DNA of 64,000 bases from Candidatus Omnitrophota bacterium (GTDB taxonomy: Bacteria > Omnitrophota > Gorgyraeia > Zapsychrales > Zapsychraceae), in NCBI GenBank assembly GCA_029261055.1, contig JAJDCA010000003.1, positions 3,641 through 67,640 on the forward strand, read 5' to 3'. Of the stretch, positions 2,979 through 64,000 are shown piece by piece; position 1 is the stretch's first letter, and every line of letters begins with the position of its first letter. Made by a program: the position numbers and the translations under genes. The notes beneath the pieces are model-generated. The model did no database searches and was not told the origin of the DNA. It saw nothing but the letters and a program-made list of their open reading frames with translations.

Positions 2979-3359
2979 CTACAGCAAGTTCTTTATTTTC
3001 TTTAATAAATTTACTGTTTTAAATGGTTTGATAATGAAGTCATCAGCCCCAAAGTCTTTGTACGCATCTTCAATATAGGATTTTTCATAGGAATTTGAAG
3101 TAAAGGTTATGACTGGGATTTTGTTAGAAAAAGTAGTTTTAATCTCTTCACACAAGGTGTATCCATCCTTGTAAGGCATTAATATGTCTAATAAAATTAA
3201 ATCAGGCGTATCTGTTTTAATAATTTTTAAAGCATTTTTCGGGAAATTTAATGTTGTTACAGAAAATCCATTTTTTGTTAGAATCGATTCAAGCATGTGG
3301 AGCGTTCCAGAATCATCATCAATTACCATAATTTTTTTATCTATATTTTTTTCTTTCAT
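2979..3359 (-). CDS. single-domain response regulator (CheY-like receiver)
   Basis: MVIDDD...DLILLDILMP...KPF receiver signature. The start was moved to an internal Met to remove a 17-nt overlap. Confidence 0.8.
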   Translation of the reverse strand: MKEKNIDKKIMVIDDDSGTLHMLESILTKNGFSVTTLNFPKNALKIIKTDTPDLILLDILMPYKDGYTLCEEIKTTFSNKIPVITFTSNSYEKSYIEDAYKDFGADDFIIKPFKTVNLLKKIKNLL

Positions 3360-20783: not shown

Positions 20784-20882
20784 TGTGAGGTCTTGGCATT
20801 GACCTGAGTGATCAATACCATACATTACGAAGGGAATAAGAAAATAGGTTTATGTGTGTTTTAGCTGACTTTTTTCTACTTT

Positions 20883-22754: not shown

Positions 22755-22814
22755 TACGATCGGTACTATATCGTACTTTTTTTGATAGATCAAGGATAAT
22801 ACATAGGTTGTGTA

Positions 22815-47000: not shown

Positions 47001-49269
47001 GTTCATCTGCGTTGATGTCAATATTATTTATACTTGACGTAATTTTATTATTTATTTTTATTAAAGTTGTTGTTTTGATATTTTTTTCAATTTCAGAAGT
47101 ATTTTGTACAGAATTCGTATTTGTATAAATTGCATCAATTTGGTTTTTTTGATGACTTTCCAATCCATCAATCTGCTGCGCTAATTCTTCAAGCGGCTTC
47201 TGGACTTCTTCAATCATCATAGAATGATCCACTATCCATTGAAATTTATCTGAAGGTATCTTTCCCTCAAATTTTTCAACAAACTGATTAACAAGATCTA
47301 TGTTATTTGATATTTCTTGAGTAACGTCTTCTGATTCAAGCATTTGCTCTATTTTTTTGGTTAATGGGTTTGTTTCATACAATTCTTTAAAATCATTTTG
47401 AAGGTTAGTTACCATATTTCGTACTATTCCTTCTGTGAATTTGTTTTGTTTTTCTGCAACTATATCTGTTAATGACTTTATATCTTCCGGTCGTTCTTGC
47501 TTTGCGTTAGCTACCGCCGTAATGAAATTTTGAACGAGAGTTACTTCTTCATTTTTCGCAGAAATGAAGCCATGCTCTTCGGGATTGTTAAAAAAAGTGT
47601 TTTTTCTTTTTTTTACGATCGCAGCATACGAGGGTATTTTTTGTAGAAAATTATTATTATATTGAGATTCAATATCCTGCACAATATTTTTTAATGCCTG
47701 TAGAGAAGGGGATCTTGTGTATCTGATATGCTTTACATCCATCACTTTTTCAATAAAAATTTTAACAGCATTTAATTCTTTAGGTTCAACAAAGATTTGT
47801 TCCTTCATTTTTTGATGATAACTATCATCTCCGGAAGAGTTAATATATTTATTGCGTAGCTCTTTTATTCCTTTGTAAGCAGTAAAAATATTGTAGCCGG
47901 TATACTTCTTGTCTAATGTATTTAAAATAGTTTCTAATTCTTTAATGGAAAGGGTAGTGCCTTGTATTATCAACCTCGCACGCATTGTTTCCAAATCTTC
48001 GGGCAATTGAGAATTATCAACCTGTTGTAGAAAGGTTGCTTTTGATATTTCCGTTATCGCCGCATTATTAACAATCCCTAGCGTATTGGTCGCCACTTGC
48101 CAGTTTATTCCGGTTTGAAGTTCTTCAACCTCTAGTTTTGTAACGGTCATAGAACTGTCAAGGATCATTGCGACATCTGTAATTTTTGTTCCACCGGAGA
48201 AATATTTGCGGGGGATGATTTCTTGGGTGGCCGGGTCATAGTCTTCTTTAATCAGGTCGTAAACGCCTTTTTTAAAGGATTCCACGTATTGGTCGTAAAT
48301 TTTTTGATTAATCTGTTTATCTTGTGTGTCTACACCCAAAGTTTTATTTTGATCCACAATCATATGACCCAATAAACTTTCTTTGAGGTTTTTTTTGTAC
48401 CAGGTAGCCAGAATCACTGAATTGTAGACTTGACGCAATTGAGAAAACGTGGTGCCTTGGTTGACTTCCTTTTCAATGGCCGGGATCAGGACCTCTCGAA
48501 CGACATCAGAGGAAACTCCACTGACAATTTTAGCTTCATCCGTCACAAGGCTGTCTAGACCGAATGATTCTTTATCCATATTTTCTTGTAGGGCCACATA
48601 ATCTTCTTCCAGCATTACTTTAAGGTAACTGTCTGTCACAAACACGCTGGATTCCCGCTCATAAACTGAGGCTTTTTCAGGCACAATCCATATTTTATTA
48701 AAGGTATTCATCGGAATATCCGTGGTGCCAAACCGGGCATAGGCTTGTTCATGCACTTTATTCCAAAAATCAGCGCCTAATTCCTCTTCAGGGTACATTA
48801 AGGAGGCGGTTACCTGTTTGAGCATGTAGTCTTGAGCCAAAAGGTCGCGGCCCATTTGGGTATCGCCAAAATTTTCCGGAATAATACGGTCAGATTCATA
48901 CGGGGAAAGGTTTACCCACATATCTTCATGGGGAATAGTTAATGAAGCTAGAAAATATTTGATTAAACGGGTGGATTCGGCCTTTAATTCATCGCCTTCA
49001 ATGTCTGTATCCCCTGTATTGATCATAAAATTGATACGCAGTGGATCATTCGCATGAAAGGTAAGCCCATTCATCAAGGGTGGCGTAAAAACGTCGCTTA
49101 AGGGGATCATCGTTCCGGGAATCGGCAAATTTAGTACATTTTGTGGCGCGGTCTGCGCTCGGACCACGGAAGGTGGCATAATGGTTGTAGCGCTGAAAGT
49201 TATAGCCATTAAAAGAGATATGACTCTGTAGGGTAATCGTATGCATCGTTTTTGCATGGACAAGTTCAT
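44041..49269 (-). CDS. 1742-aa secreted/membrane-anchored giant protein containing an intact phosphoglycerate kinase domain (approx. 45300-46620) flanked by uncharacterised regions
   Basis: N-terminal signal/anchor. The PGK motifs are all present: KRVAMRLELNVP, HMGRP, VLENVRFNKAE, NDAFGAAHRNHAS, VVGGSKVSDKI, FWNGPMGAFD and TGGGDSVTA. Confidence 0.8.
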   Translation of the reverse strand: MNLSMQKRCIRLPYRVISLLMAITFSATTIMPPSVVRAQTAPQNVLNLPIPGTMIPLSDVFTPPLMNGLTFHANDPLRINFMINTGDTDIEGDELKAESTRLIKYFLASLTIPHEDMWVNLSPYESDRIIPENFGDTQMGRDLLAQDYMLKQVTASLMYPEEELGADFWNKVHEQAYARFGTTDIPMNTFNKIWIVPEKASVYERESSVFVTDSYLKVMLEEDYVALQENMDKESFGLDSLVTDEAKIVSGVSSDVVREVLIPAIEKEVNQGTTFSQLRQVYNSVILATWYKKNLKESLLGHMIVDQNKTLGVDTQDKQINQKIYDQYVESFKKGVYDLIKEDYDPATQEIIPRKYFSGGTKITDVAMILDSSMTVTKLEVEELQTGINWQVATNTLGIVNNAAITEISKATFLQQVDNSQLPEDLETMRARLIIQGTTLSIKELETILNTLDKKYTGYNIFTAYKGIKELRNKYINSSGDDSYHQKMKEQIFVEPKELNAVKIFIEKVMDVKHIRYTRSPSLQALKNIVQDIESQYNNNFLQKIPSYAAIVKKRKNTFFNNPEEHGFISAKNEEVTLVQNFITAVANAKQERPEDIKSLTDIVAEKQNKFTEGIVRNMVTNLQNDFKELYETNPLTKKIEQMLESEDVTQEISNNIDLVNQFVEKFEGKIPSDKFQWIVDHSMMIEEVQKPLEELAQQIDGLESHQKNQIDAIYTNTNSVQNTSEIEKNIKTTTLIKINNKITSSINNIDINADELHDLLTTIESNKSNPSIVKTSKLVLNHIFEPFVNLDLAKNDKELFNNIPENAKQVTTHEGLITYSLGTSKNKGVEYYLLQHIRGGDAASDNRAVADDVRRLLAGDTVNLRDNAMASTKNLKDLSDEELKDKRVAMRLELNVPIDEKTGEITDDTRIAESIPTIKYLMDKSPEMIIITAHMGRPEGQEDPTLSLKKVVKNIAEKLWDDGLGRIYYNPIFKTMADVEAYMQRPGVDEKAFKNSIIVLENVRFNKAETILSEAEDVLKAAKKSSDPHVIQIAKENVEKARETHSQFSQKLYKGVDVFINDAFGAAHRNHASVTGAEGIVPIRVSGLLLDKELKMAEKVRTNTGLAVVGGSKVSDKIIMLETLLKNPNLKKLLIGGAMANAFLKAQKIDMGASLAQDKDVELAKELFRKYSDKIILPIDGVVADKFEEGANNRIITDIREGVEDGWMMVDIGPKTVQLFTSEIQKISEENPEQSIFWNGPMGAFDVLSFAQNGTKDVGKSLALADNLTVTGGGDSVTAINQFEIKGIKFISTGGGSFLKLLEGGSNALPGVATLTKVIITQESDTNFQSNDVEKELMIIYSRKNPENQKTKDLYFRVSAQFFPEEGHTHFKIVEETVIGPENKIKQDELRKGTYKGDFRKNEDAFKREILFQIPIINNDINRIAKHTDVREAADVFNNQIIMKGVDNSMSSDITNHVSSIVDAMNKKIPEDGFLLTFKNIEQVEVSETNNLIELKKELPNLKSYLNIFIELHKNKFSEERLEIFASKQMFMDLVIKNAEANKGDIVDMIKSVQRSVRLAKKAYGQKILDQAQKDLNLNFDFNNQNQKLKNILNEQQITYSKDSPLLKESNIISLLQNLADNAMLENRVKVSQPNKTGGINLDPAMLKFEVKRDGNGIVLPFAQQPDAAMRVDGVVPVILNVIRIPSMLPLLGLSESDMDSDFSRTAPGLFGSPTQGDVSWLDRYRQKFCRKEIDASPHIG

Positions 49270-50281: not shown

Positions 50282-51586
50282 TTATTCATGATTTTCCATT
50301 TTCACCGCTTTTTTAAATTTTTTTAACTGCTCGCGATAGAAGTCTACAGAAGGGTGCTTTTCGATGAGATTTTTTTCAATAGCGATAGCTTCGTCAATAC
50401 GGTTGAGTTTGTACAGAATTTCGGCTTTGGTATCTAAGAAGGCTGATTCTTCAGAGGAAATGGTGAGTGCTTGGTTAATGAACTCAAGAGCTTTATCTAA
50501 TTGGACATTTTCTTCGGCATAAAGCCAGGCGAGATCATTGTAAATTTCAGCGCGTTCAGGTTCTTTAGTCAGACTTTCTAATAGAAGTGTTTCTTTAGTG
50601 CTTGCATCAAGCATAGGGTATTGGGATATGTATTGGGCGTAGGCTGGATTGGATAATGTGAGTATGATTATAGGAATAATAATTGAAGAGGCATTATAGA
50701 CATAGTGAAAAACAATTGATGGAATGATAGATCCGCTGGAAGCACGCAGCATTGTTAAAATAAATCCTAATAACATCACGGCACTAATGGCCAGCCAGTC
50801 TCCCCAGTATTGGGCCACATGTGAGAGTCCAAAAAAGAGTGAAATACTGACGACGGCAAATGTTGTGCCTTTCAGGCGCTGCAAGACTTGAAAGAAATAC
50901 CCTCGAAAAATGACTTCTTCAAGAAATGGGGCGGCCAAAATTGCAAGAAGAATAAACATTATAAGGGCCCCTGCAGAAGGTGTGGTGGTTAAGATTTCGC
51001 TTAAGGGGGTGTTTGGGCTTACTTTACGTGTTGTAATCAGGAATGATGCGATTGTTGCAAAGGTCAAACTCAAGAAAGCCGGTCTGAGGACTAAGGTAAA
51101 AAAAGATTTTCCTTTGTGGTCGAGTCCAAGACTTTTCCAAAATCCAATGTTAACTGGCCTTCGCACGGTTTTATAGATAAGAAAAATAGTTAAAAAGGAG
51201 GAAAAAATAGTAATGATTATCAGGTTCCATAATTCAGTTTTGAGTGGCGTAAATATTAATGAAGCTACTTCGAGTACGATTGCAAAAATAGTTATACCCA
51301 GGGTGGATAAAATAATGATGCCCGTGGCATCCAACCCTGTATCTTCTCTAGTAAGATATAGCCCTTCTTCCGAAGCCGCATTATCCTTTTCGATAATATT
51401 GAGAATTTTGTAACGTTTGATAAGATATATTGGTACGGTAATAATTGAAAATAAAAAAGTTAAAACAGCTAACCACACTGGTTTAAACTTGATGTGTTCA
51501 AAGTACAGGTCGGCACCTTTTTTATGTAGAAAATAGGCATCAAGATAAACAACCAAAGAAAAAGCAAAAATATACGTAATCGACAT
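50282..51586 (-). CDS. CPBP-family (CAAX/Abi) intramembrane metalloprotease with C-terminal TPR repeats
   Basis: EEVIFRGYFF...FGLSH...H motifs in the TM region. TPR-like helices lie in the last ~110 aa. Confidence 0.75.
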   Translation of the reverse strand: MSITYIFAFSLVVYLDAYFLHKKGADLYFEHIKFKPVWLAVLTFLFSIITVPIYLIKRYKILNIIEKDNAASEEGLYLTREDTGLDATGIIILSTLGITIFAIVLEVASLIFTPLKTELWNLIIITIFSSFLTIFLIYKTVRRPVNIGFWKSLGLDHKGKSFFTLVLRPAFLSLTFATIASFLITTRKVSPNTPLSEILTTTPSAGALIMFILLAILAAPFLEEVIFRGYFFQVLQRLKGTTFAVVSISLFFGLSHVAQYWGDWLAISAVMLLGFILTMLRASSGSIIPSIVFHYVYNASSIIIPIIILTLSNPAYAQYISQYPMLDASTKETLLLESLTKEPERAEIYNDLAWLYAEENVQLDKALEFINQALTISSEESAFLDTKAEILYKLNRIDEAIAIEKNLIEKHPSVDFYREQLKKFKKAVKMENHE

Positions 51587-51698: not shown

Positions 51699-51953
51699 AT
51701 GATTATGAAAGTTTTTAATAAAGGTCAGGTTGTTATTCCAGCACGTATTCGTAAGACTTTAGGGATTGAAATAGGAGATGTGGTGGATGTAGAAATTAAT
51801 CCACAAAAACGTAGTTTAGAGCTTAAGGTAACCGATCAAAAAAAAGCAAAGGCTCTTGCCGGTTGTTTTCGAAAATATAAAAAAAACATACCATTTCCTT
51901 CTCGTAAGAAAATGCATGAAACCTTTACAAAAGGATTGATGAATGAAAAGTAA
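51699..51953 (+). CDS. AbrB/MazE-type (SpoVT_AbrB) antitoxin, VapB-like
   Basis: Swapped-hairpin N-terminus (KGQVVIPARIRKTLGIEIGDVVDVEI). It overlaps the downstream PIN gene by 11 nt. Confidence 0.7.
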   Translation: MIMKVFNKGQVVIPARIRKTLGIEIGDVVDVEINPQKRSLELKVTDQKKAKALAGCFRKYKKNIPFPSRKKMHETFTKGLMNEK

Positions 51954-52359
51954 GTTAATGGATACAAATGTTATTGTGCGTTATTTTGTAGAAGATCCAG
52001 TTAAGGTGCATTCAAAGTTTAAAGGGGTTTTTTCGTTTTTTCCAAAGGTAGAATCAGGTGCTGTGAGTGTGGAACTTCCGGATTTAGTTGTTTTTGAAGT
52101 TTTTTTTGTTTTGACCAACATTTATAAAATTCCACAAGTTGATGCAGCACAAAAACTTAGTGATCTTATTGCGTTTCGAGGGTTTTTGATGCAGAATAAA
52201 CCTCTTATGACCTCTTGTCTTCAAAAATTACAAAAAGAAAAAATCGATTTAGTTGATGCTTATTTGCTTTCTCTTGCGAAACAAAAAGGAATTTTGGCTG
52301 TATATTCTTTTGACAAAGATTTATCCAAACACGGCCTGCAATTGGCTGATGTGAAGTAG
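51943..52359 (+). CDS. PIN-domain toxin (VapC-like)
   Basis: Acidic residues at MDTNVIV, ...DAYL... and SFDKD, with the right spacing for PIN. Confidence 0.75.
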   Translation: MKSKLMDTNVIVRYFVEDPVKVHSKFKGVFSFFPKVESGAVSVELPDLVVFEVFFVLTNIYKIPQVDAAQKLSDLIAFRGFLMQNKPLMTSCLQKLQKEKIDLVDAYLLSLAKQKGILAVYSFDKDLSKHGLQLADVK

Positions 52360-52368
52360 GTTTAAGGA

Positions 52369-53208
52369 ATGGCTTTTAAATCATCACTCCAATTTTCTAT
52401 TATTATTCCCACGCATAATAGGCGGGCTTTTCTTGAAATCGCGGTCTCTTCTGTTTTGAAGCAAAGTGATGCGGATTTTGAGTTGATTGTTGTCGATGAT
52501 GGATCAACCGATGAGACCAAGGATTATATTCAAACCATTCATGATCCACGCTTTGTGTATTGTTATCAAAATAATCAAGGGGTTTCCAAGGCACGTAATG
52601 CGGGGCTGAAGCAGGCTCGAGGTCAATGGATTGCCTTTCTGGATTCGGATGATCAATGGACACCACAGAAGTTAGAAATAACACGGCAATATATCGAAAA
52701 GTTTCCTTCTATTTCAATATTTTACACGGAAGAAGTTTGGTATCGCAATGGTGCAATTTTAAATCAAAAGAAAAAACATAAAAATCCGGATGGGCATGTT
52801 TATATTCAGGCTCTTCCCTTATGTTGTATGAGCATATCGACAGCCGTGATTAATCGTACCGTTTTTGAGGCAATTGGCATATTTGATAAAGATTTCGTTG
52901 CGTGTGAAGACTATGATTTTTGGTTACGGGCCACGCATCGTTATGAAGTCAAATTAATCCCTGAGGCTTTGACTCTTAAAGACGGCGGTCGGCCGGATCA
53001 ACTGTCTTCCAGCATTTGGGGATTGGATCGGTTTCGCATCAAGGCCTTGTCCAAGATGCTTAAAAGTGGGCAGCTTTCCAAAAAAGATTATGCTGCAACC
53101 TATCAAGAAATACTTAAAAAATCGCGTGTGTATATAGCTGGAGCTAAAAAACGAGGGAAAATTGAAGAGGTTCGAAAAATGGTATCAGATCTTAATCGTT
53201 TTAAATAA
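52369..53208 (+). CDS. family 2 glycosyltransferase
   Basis: FSIIIPTHN...VVDDGSTD...NQGVSKARNAGL...DSDD matches the GT2 motifs. Confidence 0.85.
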   Translation: MAFKSSLQFSIIIPTHNRRAFLEIAVSSVLKQSDADFELIVVDDGSTDETKDYIQTIHDPRFVYCYQNNQGVSKARNAGLKQARGQWIAFLDSDDQWTPQKLEITRQYIEKFPSISIFYTEEVWYRNGAILNQKKKHKNPDGHVYIQALPLCCMSISTAVINRTVFEAIGIFDKDFVACEDYDFWLRATHRYEVKLIPEALTLKDGGRPDQLSSSIWGLDRFRIKALSKMLKSGQLSKKDYAATYQEILKKSRVYIAGAKKRGKIEEVRKMVSDLNRFK

Positions 53209-53225
53209 GCAACGATAGGATAATT

Positions 53226-56200
53226 TTAATGCTTTGGGTTTATGGTGATACTTCGCTCTTTTTCTAAAAATATTTCCCCTTCATCAAGAATATCCTCTAC
53301 TTGAAAGAATTTAATTTTGATAGGATAACGCGTTGATTCAGAAGAAAAATTAAAATATTTATGCGAAATTCTAATAGTTTCTGATTGGCCAGGTCTAATG
53401 CGCACTGTTTTTACATCTTCTGCCAGGATATCAAATACGCGATCCTGCCCCCAATCAACCACAGCTTCTACTTTAACTATTGCCGAATCCTGGGAAGATA
53501 TCACGGCTTTAATAACGACATCATCTCCTGACGTAATATCACTGCCACAAGCCACCGTCCCTAAACCATCCGGATTGTCACAAAGAATTTCAAAATTCTT
53601 GATTGTGAGTAATGATTGAGGAATAACCTTAACATCCGGATACGTTTTAGTAATACTCAATCCTTGATCATTTATTAATTTTAATGTTACAGTATAATTT
53701 TCTTCCACACTAACAGGATCATATGGGTGTGAATAAGATAAAGATTTTCTGGATGACACAGTAAAAGATTCAATAGTCTCTACAGTTCCGTCCCCATAAT
53801 CAATAGAACCGTGCAGTGTTTGTGTTGTGTCAAATGCTCTGATAGTCGCCTTTAGATTCGCTAATCCCCATGAACCATCAAGGATATCATTATTAATTTC
53901 CACATTACCATCTTCTATCCAAAAATCAGGATACACCGTTATCGTTTTTGATTGTTCCTGGGTGTAATTATTATCATGGACTTTTACTCTAATAGCATAT
54001 TCTTTGGGATCTGTTAGGGGCAGAGTGTACGTTTTTAATTTATTTATTTGAAAGTTATTTCCCGGGCTGATGGTAAATGGTGCTATATCTTTTGCACCAT
54101 CTCCCCAAGATAATCTCCCCGCTAAATTAACGGTTTTTACTGTGCTAATTTCTGCCTTTATCTCAAATTCTTTTCCAATATTCACGCGCGAGGGGGCTGA
54201 TAAAGATGCTATTGAAAAGGCCGCGTTGCCTGCATGATTCACAGATACTGGCACATCTTTTTTTACAGTTTTGTCATCCCCCGACACCTCTACACTAATA
54301 TTATAATTTTCTGTATACGGAGCTAGCCCCTTTGTAAAATTAGATTGTTTATATTCATGTGTTGTTGCCGTTGCTGTGTATGTTCCGTCAGAACCAATCA
54401 AAAAATTTCTGGGCCCATTATTAAAGGAATCTTCTTCACCATCCCCCCAATAAACCCTTCCGTTAAGATTTGCCCCGGGGGTCCCCGTCACAATAATTGA
54501 AAGCATTACTGTTTCATTTTCAGCCACGAATTCTTTATTCAGCGTGACTGAATCAATATTAAACACATCGAAACAATTTGTTTCTGCACATCCAGGAGGA
54601 GATATTTCTACACATTGCCCTAAATTATTACACTTTTGTCCTGAAGAACAATCATTAACATCGACACATTCCGGAGGATCAATCACCGGACCATCATTAT
54701 CCCTATTATCCAGTCCTTTCGGTAATGCCAACTCTTGGACAATAGTAAACGTACGCTTATGTTCATTTTGCATTTTATTATTCATGACCACCCTAACCCG
54801 TTTATTGGCTGGATTGGAATCGGCATACGTATAAGAACGAAAATTTCCAGGCTGATCTATCAAAAATCCTGACTTAACAAAAGAATCGTTAGGATCAGCA
54901 GGCCCCCAACCTCCTAATGAATCGCCTCTTTCAAAATAAATTTTGGCATCAAACCAGTCACGATTATATAAAGGCATAACATTGACCTTTAGACAGTTTG
55001 TACAGGAATTTTGACCTGCAACAATATTTTTGTCTACAGACCACACAGATGATGCATAAGGCATCATCGGCCATTCAACAGTTTTTGTTATGGCATCTTG
55101 TCCTAAATTATTTTTGACTGTTAAGGTGACTTCGTATGTGGCTGGAGATACGATACGTCCTTTTTCCATAAACGTAAATTCACGATGGTTTGTTGATCCT
55201 TCATCCAAGACTGTTTCCGTGCCTGTTTTCAAATTACGAAATTTCCATACATGACTGCTCATTCCGCCACCGACCGAAGTGCTTTGAAAATAATATTTCT
55301 CTTGAGGGTCAAAACTTCTCTGATAATACTTAAAATCTGCGATGGGGGCTGACTCTGCAGAACTGGAGGCCTGTACAGACATAAACCCTTCCGCTCTCCT
55401 CGTTGAAAGAAACGGGGAATCTTCCACAGTAAAAAAGTCCGATTCAGAAACTAACCTGTTTTGTGGGGTAACTTTAAGGCCTCGGGAAAAATTAACATTT
55501 ATAAAAAAAGTATGTCCGCCGAATTTATTAGATACCGTCAGTTCGACACGATAACTCCCATCATTAAAGGCATGTTCAAATACCGCATTATTACCGCGTT
55601 TAATTACGGTATCATTATCATCAAGCGTATCCCCTTTTGTATCAATTACCTTCCATTCCCGGCCTGTCACCTGTCCTGTTGAGACGTCTTCATAAGTTAC
55701 TGTACGTCCACTCGTGCTTTGTTCTCTGAAAAATGCTGTAGGCACATTCGGGTCAATGATAAACGTGGTTACGCTGCTGCCATCACTTGTATTATCGAAA
55801 GGAAGACTGTTCGGACAGGTTTGCCCATCGGCCGTCACCGCCGTACGAAATTGACTTGGGCTCAAGCTCTGTCGGGTGAACGAACTGTTTTTAACCAATT
55901 TACCATTCTGCCCACGATTCACAAACACCTCTTGAGAAGCCATCACCGTAAGATTTTTGGAAATAACATTGACTGTGTAACGGTCTGCTTCATCGTAAAA
56001 ACGCGTAGCCGTAATCCCGCCGGGTTGTGTAACCCCATCACCAAACTCCCAACGCATAATTTTAGTGGTATCTACATGAGACACTTTAAATGATACCTGT
56101 CCGGGATTATTTTTTTCATCCGGGAATCGATACTCCAAAAGTCCCTGTCCAGTTTTTCCTCCATCAGAAGGAATTAAACCTTTGGGGGCGGGGCAGGCAT

Positions 56201-59200
56201 CAACGACTTCATCCGGAATATCAATTGGTATTATTTCTTCTTTTGACACAACATGCGTTCCCTGTTCATCATCAATTTTTATGCTTAAGTTAACCTTTAT
56301 TTCTACTGTTTCAGGTATTATTGAATATTCAAAATTTTGACCCAAGTCGTCATTCGATACAAACATCGCTATCAAATCACCCTCCGCATTTTCTGCATTA
56401 ATAGACCAAAGCCAATCTATGGCCTCGATGTTATCCACTTCTAAATCCCCGCTAAACTGTATTGTTTCACTATCAAAAAATTCATGGGTAAATAAAACGT
56501 CCTTGCTTGTACGAGTAGGACCGGATACTGCAGTATCTTCATCATCCAGTATCAGGACAATATGAGCCTCTGAATCTTCTGATTCTATTTTTGACGTTAC
56601 TGGATTTACAACATCATGCGACACACGTAAGGTAATATATACAGGCTCGGTAGGATCTTCAATATTTGTCGTTGCAAGTAAGTCGTGTGTTTTATTATCT
56701 ATGGGGGGGAAATATAATTTATCTGGAGTTGTTTTTAATAAAAGTTCTGCTTTTGAGGCAAAAACATTATCGCCTTTAATTAATGCCAACGTAAGTTCCA
56801 TTCCTTGTGGAAAATCATCACTCATTTGAAAATATGGCATTTGAGAATAAATTTCTATTTCATTACCCTCCGTCTTTTCCACAAAAAGCTTTACCTCGAA
56901 ACCTTCATCTAATTTTACCGGAGGTGTTCTTTTTGAAGGATCTACCGTGTCAAAAGTAACAACGTCGCCTCCAGATGAATATTTAAAACCGTTAACATCC
57001 GTTACAATTAGATTTATAAAAAAACGATTATAATCATCAAAGCTCCCAACAGGAAGAGTATAAATTGGATCTATTTCGGTAAGCGTAGTTGTAACTTTTA
57101 CATCATTTAAATCTGTCGATGTTATTCTCCATTCAAGAAGATCAACATCTAGGCCATCAATATCATTAAAAAATTGTACAGTTTGCGAATCTAAAACTTC
57201 ATAAGTAAAATCAATTAAATAATCTTCAGGATGACGGCATCCCTCCCCTCCGTTCAAAGACGTTCTAAATTTTGTTGGTACACTCAAAGTATTGCTTGCC
57301 GTAGAAGCCGGGCAGACATCAAAGGTATTATTTTGTACACCCAGTTCTCGTTTAACAATATCAATAGCCCGTTGATCAAATAAAATATCTCCATGCGGAT
57401 TGTCTGTTATTTGTGGTAAGGACGTAAAATTATCCCCCAACCCTCTTGTATAGTTCTGAACAAATATGTCATCCGACGGAAGGCTTGCCGGAGGAATATG
57501 TTTGTCTCCTTCTATGGCAATTACAAATTGATCCGCCTTTCCATTAAATTGGCTAACAGACTGAGGACTAAAAAGATTTTTCTGAATATCTCCATACGGA
57601 TACATTGCACGTGTTATATCTCCATATTTAGTGAATTTGGTTCCTATGGGAGCAAAACAAGATCTTGCGGTATTTGATCCACCTAATATTGGAGTTAATT
57701 CAATAGCTTTAAGTCCGCTGAATTCTCCTTCCTTTTCAAAACGCATGGCCTCGCGAAGGACAATAGCTCCATAGGAATGATCAATAACCGTAACGGAATC
57801 CCCCACCGGATTCTCTCGTTTAAACAGCCACCAATGATTAGCTAATTGCGATCCAAGAAGCTCAATTTTTTCAAGATAATCATACACAAAATAAACAATA
57901 TTGTATTCCTCCTTCAACTTATCATCGTTCAAGTAAAATGAAAAAATGTCTTTCGGAGAACGAGAATCAGCTCCGGGAATAAATAAAACCGTCGGTTTAC
58001 CGGCATCAAAACTCCCCAAAGAATAAATCCCAGGGGTTTCTGATATAGCCCCCCCTCCAACATCAAAAGGAATTTCACATGCACAACCGTCCCCTTCGTT
58101 CAGAGACGTTCTAAATTTCTCTTGTCCGCCCAAAGCACTGATGGTTGTAGACGCAGGGCAACCATCGCTATCTTCACCCCCATCAAGAAAAACTTCTATA
58201 TCAAACGTATTCGGTTCAACCACACCAAGCATTCTAATAGCGACATTTGTCACAGGATCATGAAAAACATCTCCCTTTTTCCATATAAAATCACCAGAAT
58301 TTCTTTTAGTAATAAGATGTGTGTCCCCTGTTGATATCCTCTCTCCAGCCATATATATGACAACTCCTTGATCTACCCCTGCCATATTATTGAAGGCTGT
58401 AGCTTTATTATATTCTACATAGATAGGCATGTTTGTACCACGGCCCAACTTTAAAATACTTGGTTTATCCTCTTGCATGGCTCTTAAAGGATAAAATGTG
58501 GTTACTCCTGCTCGTACTGCAGAACTATCCTCTTCCATAACAGCTTCTATACTTAAATCAAAAAATCCTGCTTTCTCTCGACGATACCCATTAAAATTAA
58601 GAACAAACCTATTTCCCATTGTGTCCCAAGGGTCAGCATAACTTTCGCTGCACCTGTCGGAATCATCACTAAAATCAACACAATTCCAAGAATTAGCATG
58701 ATCCCATTCAAATGTATGATGCCCCAATTCATGAGATAAAGTAGATGATTCCTCTTTATTATACGCCGTATTTACAATAATCACCTTGCTGTGACTTTTA
58801 ACAATGCTTTTATCGATATATTTTACCGACCCGCCAAGCGTATCAAGTTTTCTCAAACATGATCCATCCAAATGAATAAAAAATACAATAGCTGTATAAT
58901 CTTGAAAAATTATGTTATTGTCAGCCTTTTTAGTTACTTCTTTAACAAAGCTTTCAAAAATCTTAATTTCTTCAGCCCTATCACCACCACATAGTTGATT
59001 TGTAAACCCTGCGGTTATACCAAAACCATCTTCGCTGTAAGAATTATCTTTATTCATTTCGACTGTGTACCACCCAAAAATATCTGCCATCACAGAACTT
59101 ATTTTGCCATTTGAAATGGACGTATATAATTGATTCACATCGGAAACCATTTGATTTATTTCTGTATCTATAATGGGCTTTGACTGATCGTCCTGAAAAT

Positions 59201-62200
59201 TTACTTTAATAGCGGCAATTTTGATGTTTGAGGGAATGGAAGTGGAAGCTGAATTTATGACTTCGATACCGCTGCCTTGCGTGCTTACACGCCCCTTAAA
59301 AGCAATATGATGATCAATCCCAAAACCTCTTAGTTTAATCGTACTCCCTGAAATCACATTTGAGGGAAATCCCTGAGCCGGATAAAGAAAGAAGTGTGTT
59401 TTGTCTTTTGTTAATGAATAGAATACATCAGCCCTGCCTTCATTAAAATAATCTGCAATCGAAATCCCCAATACTCCTTCAACCTCCACTTCCTGTTCCA
59501 CACAACCCCTCACCTCTTCTGGCATTAAATTACGGACAGTCTTGGGAAGGATCAGCTCAAGCGCCTTTTCCGGGTTTTCCCGCATAGTTTTAATCAAAAG
59601 GGCTTTGCGTTTTCGAACAAAATCAAGAAGTCCACGATTGTCTCCCCGGCGTCTGGCATCAAAGATTTTTTGCGTGTTTTCTTCTAATGTGCCATTCGCC
59701 TCTGTCGCGCAGCCAAAACTATCTAGTGAGCCTTCATCCGTTTTTGGGGTGTCATCCACAATAGGTTTATCATCCTTTTCGTCGATACCTACCTTGACGG
59801 ATAGCGTATGGATATCTTTAGTTCCCCTTCGTCTGAGCTCTTGATAAGCGGTTAAAGTAACCGTATATTCTCCCGCTTCGGAAAATGTATGCGTGGGGTT
59901 TTCTTCATAACTTATATTGGTGTTTCCACCTAAAAAACCTCTTAAAATAGGAATGCCATATCCACCTAGACTTGTATTAGTTTGACTCTTGCGATCATCA
60001 CCAAAATTCCATGTAAAAGATTTAGCATTTAGAGATGAATTTTTAAACTTAACTTCAAACACCCCTTCCCGAATTTCGGTTACCTTATAATCAAAATCAG
60101 CTATGACGGCAGCCGGATCGAGGACTTCGATATAATCTGTTTTGATTTCCTGATCTGTATCTAAGGATAACGTGCTTCGTAAAAAAACTGTATATCTACC
60201 TGGTTCCGTATATGTGTGCATGGGGTTTTGTTCGATACTCTCCACCCCATTATTTTGATTCAAATCAAAATCCCATATCCATTGATCAGGATCGCCGATG
60301 GTTGTGTCGGTAAATTGAACCGTTAGAGGCGCGACTCCTTTTTTTATGGAAGAGTCAAAATTTGTAATAAATAGATTTGGTAAGGGGTTCTCATCATCAG
60401 CCGGTATAACGGTTATTGAATTACTGACACTAGGCCTAAAGAAATCCCCCGTAGTAGACTTTCCTCGAACTTCAAAGGTATACGTTTCACCTATTTCTAA
60501 ATTTAGGTTGTTGGCTGTTGCCAAATTAACTAGACCGACAGATGTCCAGCCTTGGATCTCTGTAAGGCCTACTGCTTTAAAATCAATTTTATTTGAAAAA
60601 ATTCGATACTGATATTCAATAATATCTGATTCAGGTTTATAGGGTGTCCAGGTAGCTTGGAGTTGTGTGAGTGAAGTGGTTGTTGGATTTATCGTGGTTA
60701 CCACAGGTATTGAATGGGTAAGAAGAACTAAACGTTCAAATGTTTTTATGACCTTTCCATCTGCTTTATTAATTTCTGCATAAAAAATATTTTCTCCAAT
60801 GCTCACTGTTCTTGTGTCCCAGGATAAAGAATAATTACGGTTTCCAGGAGTATCCGGGGCATTTTTCCCTACAGCATCGGATCCTAATAAAGCAGGATCA
60901 AGTATTTGGGTTCCGTTAAAAGGTTTTCTAAAAAACTTAACTGATGTAATATCTGCATTGTCTTGTACAGAAACTTTGAGGGTTACTTTACCGCTGATGT
61001 TCCTGTCTTCAGTGACTGGCGAAATTATGAGTTGCGCGCTATCCTTAATAGTTACCTCAACCTTCAGGCTTGTATCTGTTGACGGGCCTATTACGATATC
61101 CATACCAGAATCTTGTGTAGAAAAAGGCATATTTTCCAGAAAGTCAGCGTCATAAAAATCTTTTCTCGCATCATCAAAACTGTTGGGAGTCCCATCTAAA
61201 AGATACGTTTCAAACGGAGCTTTATTGTACATAATTAAAGCTCCAAAAGGTGGGTCATGGCTCCATTGGTCAAACTGGTATACATTTTTATCAAGACCTT
61301 TTGGTTGCCGAAATTCAACATAAAAATGTTCCCAGAATTTTGTCGTGTGTATCTTGAGTGCAAGTGATTTCTTTGCTAAATCTTCATAAGGATTTAACGT
61401 ATATTCATTTGATTTTTTCACATTAATTCTGTTTGTATCATCCAACCATCCGACAATATCTTTATTGGCAGCATGTGGATGAACTCTGCGACTCATAACA
61501 TCATAAAGGTTGGGTTCTTTTATGGAACAAGCTAACAAGGTATTTTCCGGAATAAAAACTTGATCGCCGCAGTCTAATCCCTGTGCATGATGAAATCCAA
61601 AATTATGCCCCATTTCATGTTCAGGAGCACCACCGGGTTCGCCTATTTCATTATATAAAAATTGTGTCTGTAGCCATGATATTGTGACATTAATGCTTTC
61701 ACCTGGATTAAGTAGAAGAGATCTCTTTCCAATTGTTCCAAACCCTGCCCAGTCGCAACCCAGATCATTTAACGGTGATATAATAATAATACGTTCATAT
61801 TGCTTAAAATTAATTGTTTCTTTTGATTTTTGCAAGACTGCTTCTAAGATGGTATCAGTATCGCAGGTCGCATTGATCGGCAATTTTTGCCAATCCACTA
61901 CTCTTCCGCTAAAAAATACTTTGCCAAACGAAACGTCCTGATAAAAAGAGTCGATTGAATCATTTTCGCCAAAAATACGGTTGTGCATTTGGTCTTTTGT
62001 AAAAGGTTCCTCTCTTTTGTCTTGAAAATTGGCAGGAATAACAATAGTTTTTTGCTCACCAAATATTTTGAAATCGGGTGTATTTAAAACAGATAACCCC
62101 ATGTTCTTCTCCGGAGTTTCCTGTGAAGGACGATTGAAATTCAATAATAAATGCGTATCAAAAAGAACCCCTGAAGCTTGAACAATGTTTCCTGAATGTA

Positions 62201-64000
62201 GCGGTCGATGAATGGGTGCTGCTGGATGCAATTGAATAGTCTGTTGGGTTGATATATTTAGTTTGTATTCCATCCAACTATTTCTATTATCAAAAGTATC
62301 AAATATTGTTACAGATAGAATCCCTTCCAGAGGGCCACTATCCTTTTCAATCCATTTCTCATTTAAAAATTGTCTAAAATTGATACGTTCTTCTTTTGTA
62401 AGTATTGAGGCTAGAATTTTAGAAATATCAGGGTTATTTTTGTTTAACTCTCCAATAGTTTTATCATCACCGATAAGAAGTTTCATCCGTCGTTCGGCAA
62501 TTTTGTTCATAAAATTCTCTAAAACAGTTTTTTCTCTTCCATTTGTCGTTTTATATTTTTCAAAAAACTTTCTTAAAACACCCGTAGCTTGACTAAAGGA
62601 AGAAAGGTCTGTATCAGGATTAAGTTCTAGAGTCACTATGATGGTGATAGGGTTGCTGCCTCTAATAAGTGTTTGTCTTTCTGGTGAGAATGTGAGACCG
62701 AGATCTAAATGATTTGGAATTTTGTCCAGAGCCACTTCAATAGTGCATCCTAAACAATTTACTCCGGAAGAGCTTCCATCTATTTGATATTCATATGTGT
62801 GTGTTGACAAATTATGCTTTACTTCTGATGAGTTAACCACTTGGCCACGGATATTTTTTAATTCTATGATAAGCCCTGTTAGGTCGACAAGGTCCTTAGT
62901 CAAATCATCACCGTTAAGAATAACATTGCCTTTAATAATGGAAGATGCATCATCTTTTTTTGGTGCATTCACTTTAACGGTTAGTGTATAGGTGTCGGAA
63001 TTGTCCTTACGTCCAAGTTCTTGATAAGCGGTTAAAGTAACCGTATATTCTCCCGCTTTGGAAAATGTATGCGTGGGGTTTTCTTCATAACTTATATTGG
63101 TGTTGCCACCTAAAAAACCTCTTAAAATAGGAATACCATATCCACCTAGACTTGTATTAGTTTGACTTTTGCGATCATCACCAAAATTCCATATGTAAGA
63201 TTTAGCATTTAAAGAAAGGTTATTAAATTTAACTTTGACCTCCCCTTCACGAACTTCAGTGGATGTGTAATCAAAATCAGCTGTTACATTTTCTTTATCA
63301 TCCGGTGTATCCGGATCCTTACCAATTGCGCGAAATGCACGTATGGTTTTTTTAGCTTTTCCCACAGCACTGTTATCATTGGTTACTGTAAGAGTGACAT
63401 CATAATTTCCCTTTTCAAAGGTATGTTCTGGAGAGGTTTTATGGCTGGATGTCCCATCCCCAAAATCCCATGCATAGATAGGATTTTTTAAAGTTGAGGT
63501 CTCGGTTAAATCAATGAAAGCAACTGTAAAAGGAGCTTGTCCACGTACTATTCTTTTTGTGTAATCATTTTCGTCTGTTTCGTCTCCCGGGATAGTGGTA
63601 AATGAAACTTCAGGGGCTTTATCGTTATCATCGCCTTTATCAATTAATATAGGGGACGTACATAAATCATCCTTCCCTCCATTTTGTCCAGAGCAGGTCC
63701 ATTTATATTCGGAGGAAGAGTCCCTAGAGTCAATAAAGGTACCGTTAGAACATCTATTTTTTAGAACACCACATTTACCGTCAACCGGTTTTGAAAGTTT
63801 GCAATCGGCATCTGATCCACTGTGTTTGCCGATGCATTTCCATCTGTCTTCCTTGAGAGAGTCGAGAGCAGGACGAAAGTCTCCTTCAGAGCAAGAATCA
63901 ATATTAGAACCACAGGTACCATTAACAGATATAGGGATTGAGCAGGAATCGGTCTTCCCCCCATTTTGTCCAGAGCAGGTCCATTTATATTCAGAGGAAG
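53226..64000 (-). CDS. >3590-aa giant multidomain protein, N-terminus beyond window edge: Cys-rich tandem modules, several PKD domains, M43-like metzincin motif HEMGHNFGFHH (~61586-61620), second HExxH motif HELGHH (~58699-58735), lipase-like DHSYG (~57761-57790), Ig/PKD-like C-terminal repeats
   Basis: The reading frame stays open from 63365 to 64000 with no stop. The track's MGKAKK start at 63365 is an internal GTG. PKD signatures (WNFGDD...NPTHTF..GEYTVTLTA) occur at least four times. Confidence 0.85.
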   Translation of the reverse strand, partial: SSEYKWTCSGQNGGKTDSCSIPISVNGTCGSNIDSCSEGDFRPALDSLKEDRWKCIGKHSGSDADCKLSKPVDGKCGVLKNRCSNGTFIDSRDSSSEYKWTCSGQNGGKDDLCTSPILIDKGDDNDKAPEVSFTTIPGDETDENDYTKRIVRGQAPFTVAFIDLTETSTLKNPIYAWDFGDGTSSHKTSPEHTFEKGNYDVTLTVTNDNSAVGKAKKTIRAFRAIGKDPDTPDDKENVTADFDYTSTEVREGEVKVKFNNLSLNAKSYIWNFGDDRKSQTNTSLGGYGIPILRGFLGGNTNISYEENPTHTFSKAGEYTVTLTAYQELGRKDNSDTYTLTVKVNAPKKDDASSIIKGNVILNGDDLTKDLVDLTGLIIELKNIRGQVVNSSEVKHNLSTHTYEYQIDGSSSGVNCLGCTIEVALDKIPNHLDLGLTFSPERQTLIRGSNPITIIVTLELNPDTDLSSFSQATGVLRKFFEKYKTTNGREKTVLENFMNKIAERRMKLLIGDDKTIGELNKNNPDISKILASILTKEERINFRQFLNEKWIEKDSGPLEGILSVTIFDTFDNRNSWMEYKLNISTQQTIQLHPAAPIHRPLHSGNIVQASGVLFDTHLLLNFNRPSQETPEKNMGLSVLNTPDFKIFGEQKTIVIPANFQDKREEPFTKDQMHNRIFGENDSIDSFYQDVSFGKVFFSGRVVDWQKLPINATCDTDTILEAVLQKSKETINFKQYERIIIISPLNDLGCDWAGFGTIGKRSLLLNPGESINVTISWLQTQFLYNEIGEPGGAPEHEMGHNFGFHHAQGLDCGDQVFIPENTLLACSIKEPNLYDVMSRRVHPHAANKDIVGWLDDTNRINVKKSNEYTLNPYEDLAKKSLALKIHTTKFWEHFYVEFRQPKGLDKNVYQFDQWSHDPPFGALIMYNKAPFETYLLDGTPNSFDDARKDFYDADFLENMPFSTQDSGMDIVIGPSTDTSLKVEVTIKDSAQLIISPVTEDRNISGKVTLKVSVQDNADITSVKFFRKPFNGTQILDPALLGSDAVGKNAPDTPGNRNYSLSWDTRTVSIGENIFYAEINKADGKVIKTFERLVLLTHSIPVVTTINPTTTSLTQLQATWTPYKPESDIIEYQYRIFSNKIDFKAVGLTEIQGWTSVGLVNLATANNLNLEIGETYTFEVRGKSTTGDFFRPSVSNSITVIPADDENPLPNLFITNFDSSIKKGVAPLTVQFTDTTIGDPDQWIWDFDLNQNNGVESIEQNPMHTYTEPGRYTVFLRSTLSLDTDQEIKTDYIEVLDPAAVIADFDYKVTEIREGVFEVKFKNSSLNAKSFTWNFGDDRKSQTNTSLGGYGIPILRGFLGGNTNISYEENPTHTFSEAGEYTVTLTAYQELRRRGTKDIHTLSVKVGIDEKDDKPIVDDTPKTDEGSLDSFGCATEANGTLEENTQKIFDARRRGDNRGLLDFVRKRKALLIKTMRENPEKALELILPKTVRNLMPEEVRGCVEQEVEVEGVLGISIADYFNEGRADVFYSLTKDKTHFFLYPAQGFPSNVISGSTIKLRGFGIDHHIAFKGRVSTQGSGIEVINSASTSIPSNIKIAAIKVNFQDDQSKPIIDTEINQMVSDVNQLYTSISNGKISSVMADIFGWYTVEMNKDNSYSEDGFGITAGFTNQLCGGDRAEEIKIFESFVKEVTKKADNNIIFQDYTAIVFFIHLDGSCLRKLDTLGGSVKYIDKSIVKSHSKVIIVNTAYNKEESSTLSHELGHHTFEWDHANSWNCVDFSDDSDRCSESYADPWDTMGNRFVLNFNGYRREKAGFFDLSIEAVMEEDSSAVRAGVTTFYPLRAMQEDKPSILKLGRGTNMPIYVEYNKATAFNNMAGVDQGVVIYMAGERISTGDTHLITKRNSGDFIWKKGDVFHDPVTNVAIRMLGVVEPNTFDIEVFLDGGEDSDGCPASTTISALGGQEKFRTSLNEGDGCACEIPFDVGGGAISETPGIYSLGSFDAGKPTVLFIPGADSRSPKDIFSFYLNDDKLKEEYNIVYFVYDYLEKIELLGSQLANHWWLFKRENPVGDSVTVIDHSYGAIVLREAMRFEKEGEFSGLKAIELTPILGGSNTARSCFAPIGTKFTKYGDITRAMYPYGDIQKNLFSPQSVSQFNGKADQFVIAIEGDKHIPPASLPSDDIFVQNYTRGLGDNFTSLPQITDNPHGDILFDQRAIDIVKRELGVQNNTFDVCPASTASNTLSVPTKFRTSLNGGEGCRHPEDYLIDFTYEVLDSQTVQFFNDIDGLDVDLLEWRITSTDLNDVKVTTTLTEIDPIYTLPVGSFDDYNRFFINLIVTDVNGFKYSSGGDVVTFDTVDPSKRTPPVKLDEGFEVKLFVEKTEGNEIEIYSQMPYFQMSDDFPQGMELTLALIKGDNVFASKAELLLKTTPDKLYFPPIDNKTHDLLATTNIEDPTEPVYITLRVSHDVVNPVTSKIESEDSEAHIVLILDDEDTAVSGPTRTSKDVLFTHEFFDSETIQFSGDLEVDNIEAIDWLWSINAENAEGDLIAMFVSNDDLGQNFEYSIIPETVEIKVNLSIKIDDEQGTHVVSKEEIIPIDIPDEVVDACPAPKGLIPSDGGKTGQGLLEYRFPDEKNNPGQVSFKVSHVDTTKIMRWEFGDGVTQPGGITATRFYDEADRYTVNVISKNLTVMASQEVFVNRGQNGKLVKNSSFTRQSLSPSQFRTAVTADGQTCPNSLPFDNTSDGSSVTTFIIDPNVPTAFFREQSTSGRTVTYEDVSTGQVTGREWKVIDTKGDTLDDNDTVIKRGNNAVFEHAFNDGSYRVELTVSNKFGGHTFFINVNFSRGLKVTPQNRLVSESDFFTVEDSPFLSTRRAEGFMSVQASSSAESAPIADFKYYQRSFDPQEKYYFQSTSVGGGMSSHVWKFRNLKTGTETVLDEGSTNHREFTFMEKGRIVSPATYEVTLTVKNNLGQDAITKTVEWPMMPYASSVWSVDKNIVAGQNSCTNCLKVNVMPLYNRDWFDAKIYFERGDSLGGWGPADPNDSFVKSGFLIDQPGNFRSYTYADSNPANKRVRVVMNNKMQNEHKRTFTIVQELALPKGLDNRDNDGPVIDPPECVDVNDCSSGQKCNNLGQCVEISPPGCAETNCFDVFNIDSVTLNKEFVAENETVMLSIIVTGTPGANLNGRVYWGDGEEDSFNNGPRNFLIGSDGTYTATATTHEYKQSNFTKGLAPYTENYNISVEVSGDDKTVKKDVPVSVNHAGNAAFSIASLSAPSRVNIGKEFEIKAEISTVKTVNLAGRLSWGDGAKDIAPFTISPGNNFQINKLKTYTLPLTDPKEYAIRVKVHDNNYTQEQSKTITVYPDFWIEDGNVEINNDILDGSWGLANLKATIRAFDTTQTLHGSIDYGDGTVETIESFTVSSRKSLSYSHPYDPVSVEENYTVTLKLINDQGLSITKTYPDVKVIPQSLLTIKNFEILCDNPDGLGTVACGSDITSGDDVVIKAVISSQDSAIVKVEAVVDWGQDRVFDILAEDVKTVRIRPGQSETIRISHKYFNFSSESTRYPIKIKFFQVEDILDEGEIFLEKERSITINPKH
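59839..60012. repeat. intragenic near-identical (~97%) 174-bp direct repeat, copy 1 (copy 2 at 63019-63192)
   Basis: Direct comparison of the two segments shows about 4 mismatches. Both encode the same PKD module (ADFDY..TE.REG...NPTHTFS.AGEYTVTLTAYQEL). Confidence 0.75.
63019..63192. repeat. intragenic near-identical 174-bp direct repeat, copy 2
   Basis: See copy 1. Weaker similarity extends about 45 bp further. Confidence 0.75.
63676..64000. repeat. ~280-bp tandem coding repeat (CCATTTTGTCCAGAGCAGGTCCATTTATATTC recurs at 63681 and 63961) encoding Cys-rich ~93-aa modules (…EYKWTCSGQNGG…C…C…)
   Basis: The DNA motif recurs exactly 280 bp apart. The translated modules share EYKWTCSGQNGGK.D.C. 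Confidence 0.55.

Follow-up and report, generated by a model that had tools for sequence, protein, structure and literature searches.

We find the end of a giant gene in a 64,000-nucleotide (nt) stretch of contig JAJDCA010000003.1 from a Candidatus Omnitrophota bacterium (this whole stretch is called the window here). The gene lies on the minus strand and runs off the window at its 5′ side. It encodes two metzincin-type protease modules and a predicted alpha/beta-hydrolase domain, together with PKD and immunoglobulin (Ig)-like domains. We think it probable that the product is a giant exported multi-enzyme protein of Omnitrophota, with at least 3,590 residues of its C-terminal part visible. The Omnitrophota are abundant, very small and barely cultured, and they are thought to live on or prey upon other microbes.

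Translating the strand directly, we read 3,590 codons without a stop between the window edge (63998) and the stop codon at 53226-53228. An earlier note on this DNA had described a protein of more than 3590 residues whose N-terminus lies beyond the window, and the stop-free translation bears this out. The DNA has a G+C content of ~37%, and the chance of such an open frame is roughly 0.93^3590. Thus, a frame of this length in such DNA did not arise by chance. The list of open reading frames (ORFs) gives the same frame as 53226..63365, beginning at a GTG. This GTG is codon 212 (VGKAKK) and falls within a PKD match at residues 157-217. It is therefore internal, with the true start upstream of the window, and the open frame and the PKD match together confirm what had been said of the listed start (MGKAKK). 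Three attempts to reach the missing 5′ end brought no continuation. An exact 41-nt search found no match in genome or metagenome contigs, and an exact look-up of the product of the neighbouring glycosyltransferase also gave no match. A protein-guided scan of metagenome contigs with residues 1-560 returned PKD-level matches only, at 24-39% identity.

The three motifs that had drawn attention to the gene are all present in the frame. HEMGHNFGFHH is at residues 794-804 (61587-61619) in protease module 1, HELGHHTFEWDH is at residues 1756-1767 (58698-58733) in protease module 2, and HSYG is at residues 2074-2077 (57768-57779).

Two metzincin-type protease modules

Both HExxH sites lie within metzincin-type protease modules, which are real domains. 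This agrees with the earlier note, which had seen two zincin-type motifs in metalloprotease-like cores. Module 1 begins with a helical and beta-barrel pro-region, and its catalytic domain starts at about residue 646. Its 12 relatives are at most 32% identical to it and carry Peptidase_M11 or Reprolysin Pfam domains. Module 2 has two relatives, one of them from a metagenome-assembled genome (MAG) of Patescibacteria, and the two modules are 20% identical to each other. The catalytic fold is that of a metzincin. In the joint alignment of 13 homologues and the two modules, the columns of the H, the E, the H and the third His are invariant and the C columns are conserved. Module 1 keeps the family-conserved Cys columns, and module 2 has Cys at or adjacent to three of them. 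The zinc motif of module 1 is an exact HExxHxxGxxH, and the 13 homologues all share its H, E, H, G and H. Further downstream, a Met in a D-x-M-G context is invariant in 15 of the 15 aligned sequences (M835 at 61494-61496 in module 1; M1794 at 58617-58619 in module 2). We take this Met as a candidate for the Met-turn, in a part of the model where the predicted local distance difference test (pLDDT) is <50.

The second zinc motif had been called atypical, and we find two reasons for this. It has one extra residue after the second His, and Glu1764 replaces the motif Gly. The third ligand position is occupied by His in module 1 and in all homologues; in module 2 it is ambiguous, as Asp1766 is at the canonical +6 position by spacing alone and His1767 is beside it. 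Module 2 retains the catalytic Glu, the three His and the Met. Among 63 family-conserved positions, module 1 keeps 38 and module 2 keeps 30. A one-residue insertion in a metzincin zinc motif is also found in IgAse, a structurally characterised peptidase (PMC12237041).

The modules are metzincins of the InhA (M6)/gametolysin (M11) branch, and they are not pappalysins. We place them in this branch because their relatives match Peptidase_M11 and Reprolysin Pfam models and because an M6 model matches below its cut-off. Six of the 11 aligned family members match Pfam Peptidase_M11 (PF05548; best E=2.7e-13), and eight match Reprolysin-type models. Unlike the gametolysin family (M11), the window modules have no PF05548 match of their own, and the link to M11 runs through the relatives. 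The M6 match is to the NCBIfam domain TIGR03296 at residues 658-906, with 42.4 bits (E=8e-11) against a cut-off of 110.8 bits.

The domain searches and structure prediction, which the earlier note had proposed as checks, uphold the zincin and alpha/beta-hydrolase folds, but they do not uphold its M43/pappalysin label. The label had been taken from HExxHxxGxxH, which is the general metzincin consensus and is not specific to M43. Pfam Peptidase_M43 has no match on module 1 and gives 14-15 bits on module 2, below the cut-off of 23; the sequence relatives carry the Peptidase_M11 and Reprolysin-type matches instead. Two family memberships were tried and rejected. Membership of the pappalysins (M43, PF05572) fails on a profile below threshold and on a closest fold that is not a pappalysin. 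Strict membership of M6 fails on the TIGR03296 score and on a third zinc ligand that is His, not Asp.

We compared the modules with characterised metzincins. One M6 protease, PrtV of Vibrio cholerae, has PKD domains at its C-terminal end. Immune inhibitor A (InhA, M6) of Bacillus differs from the window modules by their TIGR03296 score (42 against 111 bits, far under the cut-off), by an identity of 13% to InhA2, and by the setting, as two modules are embedded here in a protein of >3,590 residues. In thuringilysins the third zinc ligand is Asp (PMC12237041), whereas the aligned position is His here. A three-His zinc motif has been described for M11 and M12 (PMC7518263), and the window modules fit it. 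OgpA of Akkermansia, which is annotated as M11, is a much weaker structural match than InhA2, and we saw no indication of an O-glycopeptidase specificity. The pappalysins (M43: ulilysin, PAPP-A and cytophagalysin) have the general motif HExxHxxGxxH and the fold class in common with the modules. Among them, cytophagalysin is also a large multi-domain secreted bacterial peptidase (PMC11674741).

The hydrolase domain

The HSYG motif had been read as a lipase-like core, and this reading stands at the level of fold and triad. The AlphaFold model of the domain (pLDDT 88.5; predicted template modelling score 0.87) has an alpha/beta-hydrolase fold, the residue order Ser-Asp-His, and the Ser at a strand-turn-helix elbow. 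The modelled Ser (domain residue 101) is between strand 95-100 and helix 102-112, the Asp (191) follows strand 181-188, and the His (228) follows strand 217-220. In the giant protein these are Ser2075 (57774-57776) in DHSYG, Asp2165 (57504-57506) and His2202 (57393-57395). By this model, HSYG is the nucleophile elbow of an alpha/beta hydrolase with a putative Ser-Asp-His triad. Foldseek returned 568 PDB matches at E<=0.001, and almost all of the 50 listed are alpha/beta hydrolases. The nearest solved folds are lipases. The domain differs from secreted lipases like CALB and those of Streptomyces and Bacillus (7v6d, 5h6g, 6wpx, 3w9b) in its identity of 13-16% and in its nucleophile motif, which reads D-H-S-Y-G in place of the canonical G-x-S-x-G pentapeptide.

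A word-indexed search brought up no relatives of the hydrolase domain; only the full HMMER scan did, with 60 among 1.84 billion representatives (E<=0.001). The family is thus rare (60 representative clusters), and it is without a Pfam model. Some of its members are small proteins, about a third with a lipobox, and the remainder are domains in long proteins of up to 6,530 residues. The long ones include proteins of Omnitrophota (P0016 and P0018 are among the closest) and of Elusimicrobiota, and P0016 carries a C39 peptidase besides its hydrolase-domain relative. Aligning 26 sequences, we find the Ser and the Asp invariant and the His at least 90% conserved. The family motifs are x-[HY]-S-[YF]-G, with a variable first position, P-x-x-G-G-S, G-D-x-H-x-P (Asp) and N-P-H (His). 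Pfam matches on the relatives stay below threshold (Lipase_2 3.3e-5, Abhydrolase_6 1.1e-4, PGAP1 and DUF676). No Pfam lipase family reaches threshold on the window copy, where the best is PGAP1 with 15 bits against 24.3. Searches of PDB sequences with the hydrolase domain and with residues 2255-2600 gave nothing significant, and the family profile gave weak alpha/beta-hydrolase matches only (E>=0.08).

On either side of the hydrolase domain lies one copy of an 83-nt direct repeat (57238-57320 and 58084-58166; 75% identity, spacing 846 nt). The two copies encode Cys-bounded loops of ~26 residues each (CPAST...KFRTSLNxGxGC), and in the protein the repetition joins residues 1909-1972 to residues 2203-2254. 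A third, weaker copy of the loop, containing FRT, is near residues 2716-2728. The repeat could mark the insertion of the hydrolase domain as a cassette.

Proposed function of the giant protein and competing explanations

How would such a protein work? It would be exported and then held at the cell surface or released, with the PKD and Ig domains acting as spacers and binding modules. Module 1 would cleave proteins through a His-His-His zinc site, with Glu795 as the general base. Module 2 would be a second protease with an altered zinc loop, or a copy that only binds. The hydrolase domain would cleave ester bonds in lipids or acylated polymers. Working together for a small host-dependent bacterium, the enzymes would break down either a host or prey cell's envelope or polymers from the environment. 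Published proposals for this phylum suggest, by analogy, that a host or prey envelope may be the target.

We infer the export, as well as the enzymatic activity, the substrates and the link to predation. Export is suggested by the relatives, as stand-alone protease relatives begin with signal peptides or membrane anchors (one has a dockerin) and about a third of the small hydrolase relatives carry a lipobox. It is also suggested by the paired Cys that are frequent across the visible 3,590 residues, by the ColH-like PKD domains, and by the absence of transmembrane-like hydrophobic segments from this part of the protein (maximum 19-residue Kyte-Doolittle mean 1.15). The visible protein is acidic, with 516 D+E against 352 K+R. 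The earlier note had proposed a huge extracellular adhesion or degradative protein. The nature of the protein is upheld, and the extracellular adhesive or degradative role is plausible.

The phylum offers precedents. Published accounts describe the Omnitrophota as very small bacteria that depend on hosts or are predatory and that carry unusually many very long multi-enzyme proteins (bioRxiv 10.1101/2023.11.21.568195; 10.64898/2026.06.07.730766), and multi-enzyme long proteins are common among them (bioRxiv 10.64898/2026.06.07.730766). For those of their giant proteins that contain peptidase and hydrolase domains, roles in prey adhesion and envelope digestion have been proposed (bioRxiv 10.1101/2023.11.21.568195). 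The Archaeovorin and Dockerin types reach tens of thousands of residues and have many transmembrane regions, a SecA DEAD-like domain, and domains that are dockerins or act on glycans (West-Roberts et al. 2023). Like these Archaeovorin, Dockerin-type and multi-enzyme giants, our protein comes from the same phylum, is very long, and is tiled with unrelated enzyme domains. Unlike them, the visible 3,590 residues have no transmembrane regions and no SecA DEAD, dockerin, C39, glycosyl hydrolase or glycosyltransferase domains. The 3,590 residues, which are the visible part only, are also far below the thresholds of 10,000 or 30,000 residues used in studies of Omnitrophota giant proteins. Outside the phylum, the protein resembles the clostridial collagenases ColG and ColH, which also join a zinc protease to PKD spacer or binding domains, and its PKD domains match ColH in sequence. 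The catalytic family differs, being an M9 gluzincin there and a metzincin here. The protein also has no collagen-binding domain, and a hydrolase and a second protease module are added here.

Several points weigh against an exported multi-enzyme protein that digests a host or prey cell. With the N-terminus outside the window, no signal peptide or anchor is visible, and the C-terminus has no recognisable anchor, sorting signal or secretion tail. No secretion system adjoins the gene within the window, and the link to predation is drawn only from what is known of other members of the phylum. Neither protease module reaches a curated Pfam or NCBIfam threshold on its own. Module 2 lacks the motif Gly that 13 of 13 homologues and module 1 keep. 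Its model is of only moderate confidence, with a pLDDT of <50 directly after the zinc motif. The hydrolase has DHSYG instead of GxSxG and PG where the family consensus has HG, and its substrate class is read from fold neighbours of only 13-16% identity.

The strongest competitor is a nutrient-scavenging exoenzyme with no tie to a host or prey, which would digest environmental proteins and lipids and leave the uptake of the products to ordinary transporters. The window does encode an SBP_bac_5 extracellular solute-binding protein and a TonB-dependent receptor, and no sequence feature indicates a cell-surface target. Moreover, PKD-bearing multi-domain secreted proteases, the clostridial collagenases among them, serve ordinary nutrition or the breakdown of tissue. 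However, the transporter genes are >30 kb away with no evident co-regulation, and published work describes the Omnitrophota as host-dependent or predatory. Scavenging differs from the explanation that we prefer in the target alone, which is beyond what sequence decides, and we regard it as rather unlikely.

In a bolder form of the preferred explanation, the visible part would be the tail of a much longer giant held at the surface. On contact, it would use two proteases and a lipase of an undescribed alpha/beta-hydrolase family to breach a prey or host cell at both its protein layer and its lipid membrane, and the HExxHxxxxxxH of module 2 would be a working zinc site of a form new to the metzincins. 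Taken as a whole, this form is unlikely.

The protein might instead be mainly an adhesin or scaffold, with some or all of its enzyme-like domains serving as inactive binding modules. Module 2 would be the likeliest of them to be inactive, given its Glu1764 in place of Gly, the extra residue between its second and third His, and the 30 of 63 conserved positions that it keeps. The hydrolase, too, departs from GxSxG at the first Gly and lacks the His of its oxyanion motif (HG), and PKD/Ig-like or unassigned beta-rich sequence makes up over half of the protein that is visible. Against this, both modules keep the catalytic Glu, the three His and the Met, and the hydrolase keeps its Ser, Asp and His. 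Several members of the hydrolase family also have PG, and the family consensus is x-[HY]-S-[YF]-G. We therefore consider DHSYG and PG to be family traits and not decay. As to module 2, IgAse is a characterised peptidase in spite of its one-residue insertion in the zinc motif. An adhesin or scaffold of this kind is distinctly doubtful.

We find it very improbable that the protein is a carrier of the MARTX or polymorphic-toxin kind, one that would cleave itself and so bring its enzyme domains into a target cell. An alpha/beta-hydrolase effector is known from MARTX toxins as well. Several unrelated enzyme domains do share one very long polypeptide here, and some relatives of the hydrolase domain occur in long proteins with a C39 peptidase (P0016), a domain proposed to process Omnitrophota giant proteins (bioRxiv 10.1101/2023.11.21.568195). 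However, Pfam and NCBIfam show no RTX repeats and no cysteine-protease processing, C39, Rhs/YD or translocation domain in the visible 3,590 residues, and disulfide-stabilised metzincins and PKD domains are typical of enzymes that work outside cells.

Finally, a pseudogene fragment, which the earlier note had named as a way for its reading to fail, or an assembly chimera can practically be dismissed: the gene is cut at the window edge and an assembler might in principle be led astray by its internal repeats (85% identity over 300 nt, 75% over 83 nt and 83% over 72 nt), but 10.8 kb are stop-free in AT-rich DNA, the domains are intact and continuous over every repeat boundary, the catalytic residues are conserved, and the composition is the same as in the rest of the window.

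What is known and what is new can be told apart. The superfamily of every component is known, and giant multi-enzyme proteins have already been described in Omnitrophota. The combination of protease and hydrolase, the rare hydrolase family, the altered zinc motif of module 2 and the overall divergence (at most 32-36% identity to anything found) are new. In local profile searches, none of the 74 retrieved relatives, which are a small sample and no census, had a protease module and the hydrolase domain together. The three enzyme domains that the gene supplies are compact, can be excised and have their catalytic residues intact. With its hydrolase domain, the gene also defines a rare alpha/beta-hydrolase family that Pfam does not model and that is seen both as lipoproteins and within very long proteins. 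The canonical protease copy and the copy with the altered zinc loop form a natural pair for studying how much change a metzincin site tolerates. Should the domains prove inactive, or the protein an ordinary exoenzyme, these results would amount to the routine annotation of a large secreted hydrolase.

Domain order and other genes of the window

The order of the domains is given in the table.

Table. Features of the giant gene, with residues counted from the window edge
Feature	Window position	Strand	Basis
Giant gene, C-terminal 3,590 codons and stop	53226..64000	-	Unbroken translation, ORF list; 5′ end beyond window
Cys-rich tandem modules, residues 1-118	63645..63998	-	2.5 units of 47 residues, 4 Cys each
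PKD pair 1 (PKD1, residues 135-217; PKD2, residues 240-345)	62964..63596	-	PKD_4 and PKD matches
Region without family, beta-rich then helical, residues 346-496	62511..62963	-	No significant family match
Metzincin module 1, residues 497-960	61119..62510	-	Homologues, TIGR03296 match, invariant columns
Ig-like (Big_7-like, residues 985-1070) and fn3-like (residues 1100-1185) domains	60444..61046	-	Pfam matches below cut-off
PKD pair 2 (PKD3, residues 1200-1290; PKD4, residues 1300-1405)	59784..60401	-	PKD_4 E=2.9e-10 and 1.7e-11
Metzincin module 2, residues 1457-1949, diverged copy of module 1	58152..59630	-	
Cys-bounded loop A (CPAST...KFRTSLNEGDGC), residues 1947-1972, N-terminal side of hydrolase domain	58083..58160	-	
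Predicted alpha/beta-hydrolase (lipase-like) domain, residues 1983-2225	57324..58052	-	
Cys-bounded loop B (CPAST...KFRTSLNGGEGC), residues 2229-2254, C-terminal side of hydrolase domain	57237..57314	-	
Residues 2255-2600, weak internal repetition	56199..57236	-	No Pfam or PDB sequence match
Three weak PKD-like domains (about residues 2630-2700, 2765-2835 and 2895-2980)	55059..56111	-	
Six-Cys knot-like linker, residues 3111-3142	54573..54668	-	No family match
C-terminal array, ~4 beta-rich repeats of 110-120 residues, residues 3143-3590	53229..54572	-	

The Cys-rich tandem modules noticed earlier are real. Each unit has a W-x-C-x-G (at residues 6, 53 and 100), and the array shows as a direct repeat with a DNA period of 282 nt (83% identity). 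These modules match no Pfam or NCBIfam family, and the array probably continues upstream of the window. Running Tandem Repeats Finder over 53000-64000, we found no tandem array in the DNA; the repeats have diverged and are seen by direct-repeat and protein-level comparison.

The PKD domains, which the earlier note had also listed, are firmly supported. PKD_4 (PF18911; 151 bits, E=9.8e-45) and PKD (PF00801; 119 bits) both match above the curated threshold, in six stretches each. When the copies are scored singly, four are above threshold and three are weak. Against PDB sequences, the PKD domains match those of collagenase ColH (E=8e-9), and they also resemble those of an S-layer protein. The three weak domains give E-values of 2.3e-5, 0.024 and 0.0083 with PKD_4 or PKD, all below cut-off, and there is a WEFGDG motif at residue 2650. 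The Ig-like region matches Big_7 (E=2.4e-4) and fn3 (E=0.023), both below cut-off. The alignment with the homologue P0001 covers residues 520-1082 and includes the Ig domain (E=9e-59).

The first half of the visible protein is a supermodule of ~1,060 residues that is present twice, each copy leading from a PKD pair through a helical and beta-barrel pro-region to a zinc metalloprotease. PKD pair 2 is a copy of PKD pair 1, with 79% amino acid identity to residues 241-350. In the DNA, the segments 59791-60090 and 62971-63270 (300 nt, spacing 3,180 nt) are 85% identical. The adjoining protease modules, in contrast, are 20% identical to each other. That the PKD copies are far closer than the adjoining protease copies suggests either gene conversion or that part of the gene was duplicated recently within it.

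The hydrolase domain is followed by ~1,300 residues that we read as PKD-like beta-sandwich domains. In this part, residues 2255-2600 contain a weak protein repeat (2264-2290 resembles 2503-2529). The Cys residues of the knot-like linker are at 3111, 3117, 3123, 3129, 3137 and 3142. The repeats of the C-terminal array carry (W/Y)GDG-type motifs, and residues 3151-3212 resemble residues 3272-3329. Profile searches gave the array a weak PKD match only (E=0.19), and a PDB sequence search with the C-terminal 490 residues gave nothing significant.

The rest of the window is an ordinary bacterial chromosome, with genes for PNPase, FtsK, RodZ, a MiaB-like enzyme, riboflavin synthesis and two-component systems. 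No tRNA or Rfam match was found in the window. Its PNPase has its closest counterparts, at 62-68% identity, in MAGs of Candidatus Omnitrophota and in MAGs labelled as uncultured Planctomycetales, and other phyla reach about 50% at most. A TonB-dependent receptor (Plug and beta-barrel) adjoins a family-5 extracellular solute-binding protein at 19185-22793 (minus strand). The receptor implies an outer membrane for this organism and may serve to take up the products of digestion.

We also noticed other genes. The minus-strand ORF at 44041-49269 encodes 1,742 residues, of which only residues 880-1305 form a complete phosphoglycerate kinase domain (Pfam PGK, E=6e-103). Its N-terminal extension of 880 residues opens with a signal-peptide-like hydrophobic segment, its C-terminal extension of 437 residues has one strongly hydrophobic stretch, and neither extension has a Pfam match. 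It is odd to find a glycolytic enzyme inside a long and perhaps exported protein, and the arrangement recalls the multi-enzyme fusions of Omnitrophota (bioRxiv 10.64898/2026.06.07.730766). Two ORFs, of 468 residues at 31223-32629 (plus strand) and of 405 residues at 5914-7131 (minus strand), have no Pfam match even at E<=0.01. At 50282-51586 (minus strand), a protein of 434 residues combines an Rce1-like CAAX-type membrane protease domain with C-terminal TPR repeats. At 51699-52359 (plus strand), an ORF of 84 residues for a MazE/AbrB-type antitoxin overlaps an ORF of 138 residues with a PIN domain by 11 nt. This pair lies ~0.9 kb past the point where the giant gene ends (3′ side) and resembles a toxin-antitoxin system of the VapBC kind.

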